A stretch of DNA of 62,512 nucleotides, filler included, from Globobulimina sp. (taxonomy: Eukaryota), in NCBI GenBank assembly GCA_003354225.1. It is 30 parts of 30 records of this genome, joined end to end, with 100 filler letters (N's around TTAATTAATTAA, not from the genome) between each part and the next. Parts side by side here need not be neighbours in the genome. Positions count along the whole stretch, not along the records: positions 12,534 to 14,521 come from PIVH01009966.1; 29 more parts are not named here. One strand, 5' to 3'. The notes under the pieces were generated by a model. That model did no database searches. It was given only the letters and a program-made list of their open reading frames with translations, and had not been told where the DNA came from. Both the position numbers and the translations under genes were made by a program. Positions within the stretch are counted from its first letter, which is position 1, and every line of letters starts with the position of its first letter. Positions 12,534 to 54,171 of this stretch are shown one piece after another.

Positions 12534-14521
12534 GGCCTGCGCTCGAATCATATTTTTGGTGAAATCGCGATGTCCCGGACCGTCGATGACTGTGTAATGA
12601 TAGCTATCTGTATAGAATTCTCGGAGGGTCGCTTCGATTGTGACGCCGCGAGCTCTCTCTTCCTTGGATTTGTCCATAAAGAAGGCGAACAAAAAGGATT
12701 CTTTGCCCAATGCTTTGGCTTCGACTCTCAGCTTTGCTACGTCTCTCTCGCTCATACCGCCCAATTGAAATATTAAGCGGGCCGTGGTGGTGGATTTGCC
12801 ACTGTCCACATGTCCGCAGAAGATGATTGTTAAATGTTTCTTTGATGCGGCATCTTTCACTTTGAACTGCAACTTCTTCTCCAAGTCGCTGATTGTATGC
12901 TTGTTGACTTTGGCCTTATCGATCATTCTTTGCCTGGCACGGTTTTTGATCATTACTCCCTGTTCGGATGAAAAGGTCTTATATTTGCGCTGAATATCCT
13001 CCATAACAAATTCGTACAATTTCTGCAAGACAACGTCTGGATTATTGACTAAGTATTTTGTGTCATCGTCGCCAAATAAGTTCAACTTCTGTCGGTACAC
13101 TGCATTGGAGGAAGAGGTCAGCAATGCGACGCCAATCAGTGCTCGCAACATATTCCATTTTGAAGCGCCGGCCCCACAGAAACCAATGTCGTCGAAATAT
13201 GCATCACATACTGCGGAGAGACCATCGTCTTTAATCAAAACCGCTTCTTGGCCGAAATCAATTTTATGTCTGATTTGGTATTGTTTTTCGTTTTCGCGTT
13301 TTGAGATTAAATAAACGGAATTGCATTCAAATGAGACTGGTTTCCAATTTTTGTTCATTTCTTGAATCGTATTTTCCAACGTTTCCAGTCCAAATTGACC
13401 AACAGTTAAATGAGCGTGGTATTTCTGTGCGTTTTTCTTTGCGAAACACACCGGATAGCAACCAACCAATCCATTATATAATTGTTGCAATATTGACTCG
13501 CAGGTCGATGATGGTTCTAAATAAACCACGATCGATGGATTCGGTTCTTTGTCGCTCGCAGCTCGCTTAAAACAATTAAAATAATTCAATTCCATCTCAA
13601 ACGGCCGCATATTGGCCACCGCATTGCGAATATAATCTATCTGTTGTTGGAAATATGCTTCTTTGCAAAATGGGAAAAATACGGTGATGTGCGGCATCCA
13701 GCGCGGAAACGCTTTGTCGTGCTTCATCCGAATATCTTGAATGGCTTTCCATAAATCTTGCGGAGGAATGATAACCAGAGCGGATTGATACGACAAATCG
13801 TCTTTGCTCAACAATCTCGGTATTTTGTCCTGCAATGTCTCATTGGACTTTTCTTCACTTTTAATTTGATTTTCTGGTTTCAGCGCATTGATTTCTTCAT
13901 CATTCAATAGTTTTATTTCATCATCGTCGCCTTCCGAGCCCTGTCCATCATCTTTGCCCCAAACTTGCTTTACTTTTTTAAAAAAATGCACGGCTTGCAA
14001 TAGCTCTTCAATTTGTGGGGTAATTCGCGATATGATTTGGATACACATTTCTTTTGACACTTTGCGGATTTTAGTCACATTTAATTGCTTTGCCAACTTG
14101 GACGGATCGATCAAATCGCCACCTTGCGATGGAATGCGCTTACCTTGCGATGGAATGTCAAATTTTTCTCTCCAGTCTTGTTCGTATTCCTTTTTGCCGC
14201 ATATTTCAATCGAATCTGTAATGTCAAACTCAACATCTTCGGCTTCTTCTTTCTTGTCATCGTCGTCGCTCTCCTCTGCGCCAACAAATATATTATCATT
14301 AAAATTGCCGTTCAAGATTGTATACAAAATGAGCAGTTGATGCTGGTCGATCTTTTTATCATTGTCTGAATTTCGCTCACCACCGCAACAAAAATACTGC
14401 GCAGATAACATTCCGCGCAGTTTCGCCAACAACGCACTTAACCAAAACTCAGCATTGTTATGCAATGATAAATTAACGCCCATATCTGATTGCGTGCAAT
14501 TATAATTTAATAATTTGTCCG
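12534..14521 (-). CDS. Multidomain fusion: unknown region + 2H phosphoesterase (2'-5' RNA ligase-like) + EFL/EF-1alpha-family GTPase; open at both contig ends
   Basis: One uninterrupted frame. 2H part: SALVIIPP..RWMPHITV..YHAHLTVGQ. GTPase part: CGHVDSGKSTTT, FAFFMDKSKEERARGVTI, EFYTDSYHYTVIDGPGHRDFTKNMI. Confidence 0.9.
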
Positions 14522-41755: not shown

Positions 41756-43553
41756 AATACCTGATGGAGTGCCTAATAATGGTCTTTTCCGACGACTATC
41801 ACTTGAGCACTTTGGACGGCTTCCTGACCGTCGTCAACAAGTTGCAGTCCTCCGTCAATGTGAACAGCATTATCATCAAATTGATGGAGCGCCTAAGCAA
41901 ATACGCCGAGGCCCAGGAAAACATGGAAAAGTTCACCGAAAAGGACATATTCGCCATCTTCCAGAATTATTGCAAGCAAATCATCACCAAACACAAGAAA
42001 ATGACCTTGGACGACATCCTCGCGCTTTACGTTAAGATGTTATATATTTGCGGTGCAATGTGGATTGACGGCGCAATTTCGCACATTTGCAACCAAAACA
42101 GGTGGAGTTAGTTAATTTTGCGGCGCAATGCTATCCCGGCCGCGACGAGTATATCGGGACGATGATGGATGAGACGTTGGCGGTGATCGAGAAACATTGC
42201 GGCGACTCAGGCAAAGTGCCGGCTTCCTGCGTCTCGCACATCCATCGCATGCTGGTGTCGCCCATTCGCGCCATGAATCTGCGAGTGTTGCAATTGAAGA
42301 CGTACTGTGTGCTGATGGCCACGTTGCCGACCAACAACGACATCAAATCCATATCTTGCGACATCATCTCAGTGTTGACGTCGATCGCGGTGGACAGCAA
42401 AATCTATATCGAGTCTCCGGAGGAAATCGAGAAGTTATTCAATATGATCCATCCCTTATTGTACGACGACGAAAAGGAGGACGCGACGGCGGGCCCTGAG
42501 CAGAAGGAGGAGGCCGACGGCGCGTCGTTGGAAGAAAGCGACTTCGAAAGGGAGCAGAACTTAGTTTCGTCGCTGATCCATTTGATCCGCTGCGAGAGCT
42601 CCACGGATATCCATTATAAGTCGTTGCATTTGGCGCGGAAATACTTCGGCAAAGGCGGCGAACGGCGCTTATTGTTCAGTTTCCCGCCGTTGGTGTTCAA
42701 CGCCTTGCGACTGATCCAAAGCGCGCATGGCCGCATGGAGGCGCTGTCGGAGGACGCGATGAGTGAGAGCGAGGAGCGTGCGGTGAGTGTGAAGCCGAAG
42801 AAAATGTTCCAATTCGTGCATCAGATCTGCAGTGCGTACGGCTCGCATTCGCCGGAAACCGGGGTTCGATTATGGTTGCAAGGCGCTTTGGGTGCGGACG
42901 GCTGCGGTTTCAGCGACATTTGCTATGAGTTCGTGTCGCAGTCCTTTCTGTGCTTCGAAGAGCATGTCTCGGACAGCGGGGAGCAGTACGAGGCGATCCG
43001 GTGCATCACGGCGAGTTTGGCGCAGATAACGAGTTTGGACGAGGAGAACTTCGACACGTTGCGGAGTAAGGCGGTGTCGCACAGCAACAGATTGCTGAAG
43101 AAGCCGTGCGCCGCAAACTGCTTTGTGCTATGCAGCAATCTGTACATTAACACGCAATATGCGGACGGGAGGGTGGCGTGCAAATGTTTGGTGAAAGCGT
43201 GTAAGCGCGCCAGTCAAATGATGGACGGCGTGGAAATGATCAACGTGTTCATCAAAGTGATGAACCAATACATTTATTTGATCCTTAACAAGTGCCAGCA
43301 TTTCGACTATGAGAAAGTGAGCCAATTGGTCGAGTTGATCGGCGATAAAATCAAACAGCAACAGGCGCACTGCGCAGATGCAGAGGATATGAATGTGGCT
43401 GTTGGCGCCGTGGAGAATGCCAATGATGGCGCAGACAGTGCGAGGTTGCAAGAAATAAAACAATTTTTTAGATTGACTTGTCAGTATGTCAACGATTTGA
43501 AGAATTCCAATGATGAGCAAATTGCACACAGCTTTGCAAAAATTGACTTATAA
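41756..43553 (+). CDS. VPS35: Retromer subunit VPS35, 5'-truncated, 1 intron
   Basis: YLMECLIMVFSDDYHLSTL, FEREQNLVS.LIH, ARKYFGKGG.RR..SFPPLVF, YEFVSQ.F..FEE and RLLKKP. Intron 42031-42101. Confidence 0.93.
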
Positions 43554-52185: not shown

Positions 52186-54171
52186 TATATCAAACAATGC
52201 AAGGTTTGCAATTAACATTGAAAACTCAAACAACACCTTAATAAGAAATTCAGCAATGTACAACAATCAAAATTCAATCAAAATTTTAAATGTAACCAAC
52301 TCAACCATATTCGATAACGAAATTCACAACACATCAAACATTGCAATTAACATTTCATTATCAACAACTAACATCCTAGAAAACAACTCCCTAAACAATT
52401 CAAACACGGCCATTTCTCTATTCAATCTTACAAGCACATCCCTAATCAACAACAACGCCAGAATAAACAATCTCACTTATAATATTCTAAATTCACCAAT
52501 AAATCAATACTTCTTTGTAAATTCATCAATCCAGGTAGAAAACCAGTACGCAAAACTTAAATCATTACAAACAAACATAACAGCCTCCGGAAGCAATCTT
52601 TCAAAAGTAATCCAATTAACATCAAACAACATATTCATTAATACTACCCTAAAGAGCAATTTCAACATTTCAGCAAAGATTACAGTAAAAGATATATCCC
52701 AAACATCACCAAAAGTAATTGTTTCATACGACAACACAAACTGGGAAAATTGCAACTACTGCCAAAATGTAAGTTGGAATGGATCATACTACAAATTCAA
52801 CACAACACGATTTTCAACATACCAAATAGCAGGCGAAGAATCGATTTTAGCATGTCAAAATATTTCAATTTCAAACATGACATACACATTAAATAACAAT
52901 CTCAACACAACAAACAACTGCTTAAATGTAACTGCAAACAATATCTCCCTAAACTTAAACAACAAAATTATTATAGGCAATAACTCAAACATCGGAATTG
53001 AAGTCAGCGGTACCAATGTTACAATAACAAATGGAAAAATCCAATCTTTCAGCAAGGGAATTTCTATTAATAACAAAACAATAAATATATCAGACATTTA
53101 CTTTACAAACAACTCATACGGTCTATACATAAAAAATATATCATCATTCACAATAACAAATCTAACATTTAACAACAACACTTACGGCCTTTACACAAAA
53201 GCTTCCACAAACACTTTCATAAATAGCACATACATCAACAATTATTACGCAATTTTTCTAAATGAATCAAGGGATACAATTAGCTTCAACAACATATACG
53301 ACAATACCATAAACATTCATAGCAATTCATCATCAACAATAAGCGCAATTTACAATTACTTCCAATCAAACTCTACAACCAACATTACCGAAAAACTAAA
53401 TGGAAGTATAACATATAATCCATGGCTCACAACACAAAATCCAGACATAACAGCTCCAACAATTTCAATAAGTAATATTGCAGATGGTGCATCTTGGACT
53501 ACTACATTAACTCCCGTATTTAACGTAGTTTCAGATGATCGAGTATTAGTATGGTACAGAAAAAATACAACATCAGGTTGGACCACTTGGTACGGATGCT
53601 ATACAATTGCTTCAGAAGATGATGGCGATGGAGATTGTACAACAACGGCAGAAGACACAAACGAAACCGTAAAATATCAAATTAACGCAACAAATATTGA
53701 TGGACTAAGTACGAATTTAAATTACACGATTAAAATTACTTATGCCGCTCCTGCAGACAATTCTCCACTGATAACGGGAAGCTCAGGAGGAAGTGGAGGA
53801 AGTGGAAGCACAAGCGACGATTATCTACCAGGCGTAACAGTAAGTCGTACATGGGCAAAAATTGAAGGAAAAAATAACCATACAATAATTCGTGACAATT
53901 TTTCAGTATCAAAAGTTGAATTTGAGTTAGTAAGTACTATTAATAATTCAAAGTTAACAGTAAAAAAATTATTCAGTAAACCTAGTTCCGTTTCCACCAT
54001 CACAAATAGCTATGATTACTTCGATATAAGGTTATCAAATAATGAAAATGAAAATTTTAAAGAATTAACAATTGATTTTGATATTCCAATAAGTTGGTTT
54101 ATTGCTAAAAATTTCACACCACTTGACATACGCATGTATAGGTATTATTCGGGTTGGCAAGAATTAAACAC
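52186..54171 (+). CDS. Archaeal-type surface glycoprotein: parallel beta-helix (NosD/CASH) repeats + Gly/Ser linker + PGF-pre-PGF-like domain; open at both ends
   Basis: NNxYGLY repeats, many NxS/T sequons, FNTTRFSTY, SSGGSGGSG, and LTVKKL..KP..Y.YFDI..TI.F.IP.SW..I.MYRY..W.EL. No introns and a strong A/C skew. Confidence 0.78.

Follow-up and report, generated by a model that had tools for sequence, protein, structure and literature searches.

A contig at positions 12534-14521 of the 62.5-kb stretch of Globobulimina sp. DNA analysed here (assembly GCA_003354225.1; the whole stretch is referred to below as the window) encodes a protein in which a 2H phosphoesterase domain is joined, through a long linker, to the G domain of an elongation factor-like (EFL) translational GTPase. 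The sequence-only reading, an initial inspection of this DNA made without database searches, had proposed such a fusion and suggested that it acts in ribosome rescue or the repair of RNA ends. Having followed up this proposal, we are highly confident that the fusion gene is real, and its architecture is apparently novel, as protein, metagenome, viral and literature searches yielded no instance of a 2H domain combined with an EFL GTPase. We favor the interpretation that the contig carries a genuine gene of a microbial eukaryote, maintained by selection, whose product would use a helical linker of approximately 133 residues to tether a 2H enzyme to the N-terminus of an EFL paralogue and thereby bring RNA-end healing to the ribosome or to tRNA; taken whole, with this mechanism included, the interpretation falls somewhat short of an even chance.

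The gene fills its contig entirely (1988 nt, GC content 0.414). On the minus strand, a single open reading frame (ORF; 12534-14521) runs through 662 codons with 0 stops and is open at both contig ends, compared to 19-41 stops in the remaining five frames, and shuffling the contig 2000 times gave a longest open run of 98 codons on average and 201 at most. The proposed stop-free frame is thus borne out; the accompanying claim that it is intron-free stands insofar as the frame can be read without any intron, although an absence of introns is not provable. Translation from an ATG at 14483 gives a product of 650 residues (P0001) that reaches the contig end at 12534, and the 12 codons 5' of this ATG are open as well. 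Contigs from public sequencing runs, denoted X1, X2, X6 and X8, allowed us to look past both ends. Upstream, X1 and X2 have loose ends at 14519 in which the frame remains open for 10 codons more, and the X2 contig extends approximately 2.4 kb beyond 14519; ATG 14483 may not be the true start, and more N-terminal domains are possible. Downstream, the X2 contig reaches 305 nt past 12534. A 2008-nt X8 contig overlaps positions 12541-12608 only and extends 1940 nt past 12541, and hand translation of the first 30 of its loose letters indicates that the G domain carries on in frame, resembling EFL after switch II.

Numbered from ATG 14483, the protein consists of an N-terminal region with no family match (residues 1-225; 13809-14483), the 2H phosphoesterase domain (residues 226-412; 13248-13808), the 133-residue linker (residues 413-545; 12849-13247) and the N-terminal half of an EFL-type G domain (residues 546-650; 12534-12848) that is cut by the contig end, all on the minus strand. 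The motifs quoted in the sequence-only reading were each recovered where it had placed them. These are the first catalytic motif of the 2H domain, H265-I-T267 (within RWMPHITV; 13683-13691), the second, H358-L-T360 (within AHLTVGQF; 13404-13412), and, in the G domain, G1 (GHVDSGKST, residues 557-565; 12789-12815), switch I (RGVTI, residues 612-616; 12636-12650) and G3 (DGPGH, residues 634-638; 12570-12584), again on the minus strand.

Several comparisons identify the 2H domain. The Pfam family 2_5_RNA_ligase2 (PF13563) matches residues 240-398 with 90.5 bits against a cut-off of 27 (E = 1.5e-25), covering profile positions 1-151 of 152. An exhaustive search with residues 1-545 against 1.84 billion representative proteins returned 1433 matches at E ≤ 0.001, and for the best 150 of these the best-matching query stretch lies inside residues 184-434; all 151 of the 151 relatives compared by blastp align with the domain. 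In a 74-sequence alignment (A2), which also served as the AlphaFold2 input, both H265 and H358 occupy invariant columns, and the first motif reads H-I-T in the fusion protein versus H-x-N, with asparagine third, in at least 90% of its 73 aligned relatives. AlphaFold2 modelled residues 231-410 with a block-mean predicted local distance difference test score (pLDDT) of 94-98, and a Foldseek comparison of this model to the PDB gave 43 matches at E ≤ 0.001, among which every row listed has the 2H fold, led by 2d4g, 5h7e, 1jh6 and 5ldm. The best of these is YjcG (2d4g; E = 5.7e-09, template modelling score of 0.79 on the target), followed by cyclic nucleotide phosphodiesterases and LigT, with AKAP18, ASCC1 and Usb1 ranking lower; 2d4g is also the sole solved relative by sequence (phmmer, E = 2.2e-4). 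Judged by sequence and structural model, the 2H domain is genuine, has the 2H fold and retains both catalytic residues, in agreement with the initial proposal, and its activity is a prediction. The Foldseek matches also include 2H-fold components of the kinetoplastid mitoribosomal small subunit (7aor_ar, 6hiw_DQ, 7ane_ar and 7pub_DQ), and these proteins are a precedent for a 2H fold residing on ribosomes.

The relatives of this domain occur in varied company. Nine long relatives (982-1123 residues) all combine an EEP nuclease/phosphatase domain, a 2H domain and a poly(A)-polymerase (PAP)-like nucleotidyltransferase (9/9), and eight of the nine also carry the MJ1316 cyclic-end-recognition domain. 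Ten further relatives comprise two proteins with DUF488 and 2H, one with an RNA recognition motif (RRM) and 2H, one with 2H and a PAP-like domain, one with 2H and a RING domain, and five with 2H alone. The varied fusions indicate that the clade is an often-recombined module of RNA-end-processing proteins. Among the best 150 of the 1433 matches, the nearest by sequence are P0124 and P0126, both of the DUF488 and 2H type, and the literature on DUF488 offered no functional lead for them.

The GTPase portion is represented by 105 visible residues. Pfam GTP_EFTU (PF00009) matches residues 548-648 with 94 bits against a cut-off of 26.5 (E = 1.1e-26); with the rest of the domain cut off by the contig end, the match takes in no more than profile positions 1-89 of 188. 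Over these 105 residues the G domain shares 65-74% identity with EFL-like proteins of approximately 465 residues that possess EF-Tu domains I-III, and phmmer scores of 155-168 bits to EFL-like proteins compare to 104.6 bits for eEF1A, 83.6 for Hbs1 and 79.4 for eRF3, so that the scores for the last two lie under that of eEF1A and far under those of EFL-like proteins. The best match among solved structures is eEF1A, at approximately 52% identity (53 of 101 positions, hand-counted on the printed alignment), and the stretch from G1 to G3 follows the EFL consensus rather than that of eEF1A. The P-loop, the switch I threonine and the DxPGH motif are kept. By its sequence, then, the GTPase is of the EFL type and not eEF1A, HBS1 or eRF3, as had been proposed. 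Its EFL-like relatives include a protein of the rhodophyte Gracilariopsis chorda, and all Rhodophyta are reported as EFL-encoding (PMC3938643). A further EFL-like protein, P0002 (474 residues, JGI), has the G-domain segment duplicated at its C-terminal end (residues 363-431) and is probably a mis-assembled transcript contig.

The regions that flank the 2H domain have a different character. Residues 1-225 are helical or of low complexity (block-mean pLDDT 34-73) and include an acidic tract at residues 70-85 (14229-14276, minus strand) and a short IPSQG(K/G) tandem repeat in two copies (14121-14156, minus strand), and the linker is modelled as low-confidence helices (block-mean pLDDT 33-59). Neither region matches a Pfam family, neither is matched by blastp in any of the 151 2H relatives, and the ESM Atlas gave no usable match to the linker or to the whole protein.

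Searches for the complete architecture elsewhere agreed with the expectation that no such protein had been described. In a search for proteins of near-equal length, the best 120 of 345 matches each span no more than 15-17% of the query, and PF13563 is absent from all of them; a further protein search with residues 1-545 gave two matches, both to the 2H domain alone. Conversely, none of the best 150 of the 1433 2H relatives has a G domain, and none of the 151 relatives matches the G domain by blastp. JGI metagenome contigs yielded six plain EFL genes that match the G domain only and one distant GTPase, and IMG/VR viral contigs contained no relative, which is weak negative evidence. A full-text literature search, which left out supplements and key comparative 2H surveys, found no description of a fusion between a 2H phosphoesterase and a GTPase or EFL; the word 'phosphoesterase' has 0 occurrences in the available part of a survey of translational GTPases (PMC4342817), and '2H phosphoesterase' appears in the available part of PMC6514570 in the reference list only. 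Among longer proteins a single match was obtained, P0279 (1797 residues, EukProt), an EFL with G1 at residue 1338 and RCC1-type repeats upstream, which has no 2H domain and bears the second-longest terminal branch in our G-domain tree. P0279 may represent a further EFL fusion, or its gene model may have been merged.

In the mechanism that we favor, the EFL module would dock in a GTP-dependent manner at the factor-binding site of the ribosome, or would bind tRNA, and in doing so would position the 2H enzyme beside RNA ends with a 2',3'-cyclic phosphate, leaving it to hydrolyse these or related ends on tRNA, rRNA or A-site mRNA. Metal-independent endonucleases would be the source of the cyclic-phosphate ends, and RNA-end healing or quality control would in this way be tied to translation. 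This reading is suggested by the RNA-end company that the 2H clade keeps together with the N-terminal extensions of EF1-family paralogues, which are used for interactions and bring partners to the ribosome, according to the available part of PMC4342817.

A number of considerations weigh against this interpretation. The role in ribosome rescue, RNA-end healing or defence is a matter of pure inference, and 2H enzymes act on several substrate classes, with nothing singling out RNA ends that bear a 2',3'-cyclic phosphate. The G domain is visible over its first 105 residues only; G4, G5 and EF domains II and III, of which the latter two are the tRNA- and ribosome-binding parts, would lie beyond the contig end. 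Within the visible portion, substitutions at positions otherwise invariant in EFLs, namely G568A, A635G (in DxPGH) and, in the switch II region, G648A and A649Q, might just as well signal a loss of canonical GTPase or ribosome function. The EFL placement is based on similarity and on an unrooted tree without eEF1A, HBS1 or eRF3 outgroups, and a tblastn search with EFLs, confined to the 62.5-kb window, matched this contig only. Lastly, additional domains at the N-terminus may redefine the protein.

In an alternative, the domain does not heal RNA ends at the ribosome but acts on or binds a small nucleotide, for which candidates are ADP-ribose 1'',2''-cyclic phosphate (Appr>p), 2',3'-cyclic nucleoside monophosphates, 2'-5' oligoadenylates, cyclic dinucleotides and, following the example of AKAP18, AMP. 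The protein would in that case couple a nucleotide signal or by-product to a GTPase switch, as a translational regulator or in a role unrelated to translation. Several structural neighbours of the domain lend themselves to this view: 1fsi and 1jh6 are the plant Appr>p cyclic phosphodiesterase, 2vfk and 5jj2 the AMP-binding domain of AKAP18, 9bkq a poxvirus cGAMP phosphodiesterase and 4ye2 a viral phosphodiesterase of 2'-5' oligoadenylate; moreover, Pfam finds no RNA-binding domain in the 650 residues, and conserved switch II positions are altered in the G domain. Yet RNA ends are suggested by the MJ1316, EEP, PAP-like or RRM domains of the closest 2H relatives, and the domain is fused here to a translation factor, which has tRNA and the ribosome as its known ligands. 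We consider a small-nucleotide function unlikely.

We think it probable that the protein is a paralogue accompanying a canonical EFL. The G domain departs from the consensus at 9 columns that are conserved in at least 90% of 119 EFL-like sequences, and at seven of these columns its residues (I554, A568, L620, G635, T642, A648 and Q649) are absent from all 119. Ungapped, it is 0.67-0.74 identical to EFLs, compared to 0.70-1.00 (median 0.84) among the EFLs themselves. In an unrooted FastTree phylogeny of 96 distinct EFL-like sequences, it pairs with the EFL-like protein P0003 (support 0.84) on a terminal branch of 0.375, which is the longest of the 96, approximately 18-fold the median of 0.020, and about twice the next longest (0.179). 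Because of this long branch and the altered EFL-invariant columns, the earlier suggestion of a neofunctionalised paralogue is supported. The same suggestion had held that canonical EFL lacks a long N-terminal extension, and indeed all 119 EFL-like proteins compared have the first residue of G1 at position 7-29, versus residue 557 here, a layout far from that of the canonical EFL of approximately 465 residues with G1 near the N-terminus.

These observations also count against the possibility that the fusion protein is itself the main housekeeping EFL, having acquired a 2H-bearing N-terminal extension, rather than an extra paralogue. The intact G1-G3 motifs would suit a housekeeping factor, as would the failure of tblastn to find another EFL match within the window. 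On the other hand, the G domain does not keep the residue conservation of housekeeping EFLs, its branch is exceptionally long, and all 119 EFL-like proteins begin no more than 29 residues before G1. In addition, mean word depth rises approximately 10-fold over short, highly conserved G-domain stretches (12534-12734) only, at 2283 versus approximately 185 in X1 and 1234 versus 124 in X6. This jump likely comes from contigs of a more abundant canonical EFL or eEF1A: the much deeper X1 and X6 contigs overlap only the most conserved stretches of the G domain, as would be expected, without this being proof, if those samples contained a separate canonical factor. The contig, too, apparently breaks where the G domain is most conserved; a branch point against a more abundant canonical factor would fit this but is not proven by it. 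We therefore regard a housekeeping role as improbable.

Evidence that the gene is real and maintained comes from independent assemblies. Eight of 10 listed public runs, drawn from four studies and none on record as RNA, contain part of the contig, and five contain at least half of the sampled words; the known distribution of the fusion is confined to a few closely related samples. Four runs were aligned to 12534-14521, among which X1 matches best. In X2, which differs from X1 in study and year, one 4688-nt contig covers 12534-14519 with 6 differing letters. In X6, which bears another organism label, a 1475-nt contig covers 12559-14038 with 100 differing and 6 gap letters (approximately 93% identity) and reaches from the G domain through the linker and 2H domain into the N-terminal region, and X8 contains pieces of this same variant. 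No joints were reported in any of the four runs. Codon-position counts against X6 were made on a sample in which 40 of 143 differences are listed: 28 of the 36 listed inside the ORF fall at third codon positions and 28 of 36 are synonymous (binomial p = 6e-8), with third-position shares of 19/24 in the linker and 9/12 in the G domain. All listed indels keep the frame, namely a 6-nt deletion at 13167 in the linker, 6 nt in total in the IPSQG repeat and 3 additional nt in the acidic tract. The linker and G domain are under purifying selection. An assembly chimera, or chance read-through of two genes, is excluded for practical purposes because the X2 and X6 contigs span the 2H-GTPase junction, the differences are mostly synonymous and the indels are in frame; the check for junction-spanning sequence that accompanied the initial proposal accordingly came out in its favor.

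A subtler possibility is that the gene is a young chimera or a decaying fusion, in which a 2H gene picked up a 5' piece of EFL on its downstream side, leaving a truncated or non-functional GTPase. The G domain is visible to its residue 105 only, EFL-invariant residues are altered, and GC content at third codon positions (GC3) stands at 0.42 across the N-terminal region and 2H domain and at 0.54 across the linker and G domain (0.46 for the whole ORF), suggesting two origins. If so, the linker may have come along with the EFL portion; alternatively, the shift may reflect codon bias inherited from a highly expressed EFL. Decay, however, is difficult to reconcile with the predominance of silent differences between the two variants in both linker and G domain, with the retention of the frame in both, indels included, and with the X8 contig, in which the G domain continues in frame with 1940 nt of room. 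Such an origin is about as improbable as a housekeeping role. Finally, an assembly chimera or foreign sequence (from a giant virus, symbiont or contaminant) is very improbable: the contig is a 2-kb piece of a highly fragmented assembly, its GC content of 0.414 lies above the approximately 0.31 of many neighbouring contigs and the X1 contigs are broken at adapter sequence, but contigs from other studies span all of it (X2) or its junction (X6) with no joints, viral contigs yield no relative, the ORF's GC3 of 0.46 is bracketed by the 0.26-0.70 of other coding contigs in the window, with which its codon usage correlates at r = 0.14-0.66, and a foreign origin would in any case leave the nature of the protein unchanged.

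EFL has so far been regarded as a plain functional stand-in for eEF1A and, to our knowledge, each new branch of the EF1 family has revealed a translation-linked quality-control pathway. These GTPases have diversified only a few times in eukaryotes, giving rise to eEF1A, EFL, eRF3, HBS1/Ski7 and GTPBP, according to the available portion of PMC4342817. If our favored interpretation is true, an EFL-derived paralogue with an intact 2H domain would be the first sign of EFL spawning specialised factors, and the fusion would physically link a translational GTPase to RNA-end chemistry. Such a link would address how eukaryotic cells handle 2',3'-cyclic-phosphate ends that are made on or near ribosomes by ribotoxins, anticodon nucleases and no-go-decay cleavage. 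In its most ambitious form, which we consider rather unlikely, the protein would be the founding member of a new EF1-family class derived from EFL, in which GTP-gated docking at the ribosomal factor-binding site, near the sarcin-ricin loop and A site, delivers a tethered RNA-end healer, making it a dedicated on-ribosome repair or anti-ribotoxin factor for cleaved rRNA, tRNA or mRNA. As a compact candidate, the protein is amenable to assays of phosphodiesterase activity, GTPase activity and ribosome binding.

The window itself comprises 30 contigs of 1985-1989 nt each, sorted by length and joined via N runs and TTAATTAATTAA spacers. Because these 30 unrelated contigs were concatenated, their side-by-side placing has no genomic meaning and provides no gene context for the fusion. 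Other contigs hold plainly eukaryotic genes in long uninterrupted frames, including an acyltransferase and an OYE-type oxidoreductase. One encodes the C-terminal half of Vps35 (42069-43553, plus strand; E = 6.6e-81) with a GC3 of 0.70, the highest among the ORFs compared, and so codon composition varies widely inside the assembly. A retrotransposon polyprotein fragment with RVT_1 and RNase H-like domains occupies most of another contig (50100-52045, minus strand), and a third (52187-54171, plus strand) is a whole-contig open frame of 661 residues with only a weak Beta_helix match (E = 8.7e-05, below cut-off).

Compared with known systems, the GTPase portion most closely resembles EFL, the eEF1A substitute of many protist, algal and fungal lineages, with which it shares 65-74% identity over 105 residues and an EFL-type sequence from G1 to G3; unlike the canonical protein, it is preceded by at least 556 residues. 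In its overall design, though not by descent, the fusion is similar to eRF3, HBS1, Ski7 and GTPBP1/2, in each of which an eEF1A-like GTPase core lies behind a lineage-specific N-terminal extension used for interactions. We know of no enzyme domain such as 2H in any of these proteins, and their separate ancestry is evident from the phmmer scores, in which Hbs1 and eRF3 (83.6 and 79.4 bits) fall well short of EFL-like proteins (155-168 bits). Within this group, GTPBP1 has been linked to mRNA surveillance (PMC6120710).

With respect to the 2H domain, the proteins of approximately 1000 residues that combine MJ1316, EEP, 2H and PAP-like domains belong to the same clade, share the RWMPH and HLTVGQF motifs and are 33-43% identical over the domain, but their partners are a nuclease/phosphatase and a nucleotidyltransferase rather than a GTPase. 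P0124 and P0126, the nearest relatives by sequence, are 41-42% identical over the 2H domain and differ in that their N-terminal partner is DUF488 and they have neither linker nor GTPase. Bacillus subtilis YjcG (2d4g), the cyclic nucleotide phosphodiesterases and LigT share the 2H fold, yet stand alone at approximately 170-190 residues and are only 13-17% identical. Human ASCC1, which joins a KH domain to a 2H domain, belongs to the ASC-1 complex, which functions in ribosome quality control through its helicase core; the ASCC1 2H domain is a structural match (8tly_B, Foldseek rank 27) at 13% identity, and its association is via a complex with a helicase, not via fusion to a GTPase.

A parallel in proposed logic is provided by prfH-RtcB operons and C12orf65-MJ1316 fusions, for which the coupling of a release or rescue factor to RNA repair has been proposed in the available part of Burroughs and Aravind 2019 (PMC6514570). 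As described there, those systems use peptidyl-hydrolase release factors together with the RtcB ligase or the MJ1316 domain, and do not involve a GTPase-2H fusion, but they share with our favored interpretation the pairing of a termination or rescue factor with an RNA-end repair module. Set against these systems, an EF1-family GTPase paralogue with an N-terminal effector extension is of an already known kind, and what is new here is the 2H module in yet another fusion.

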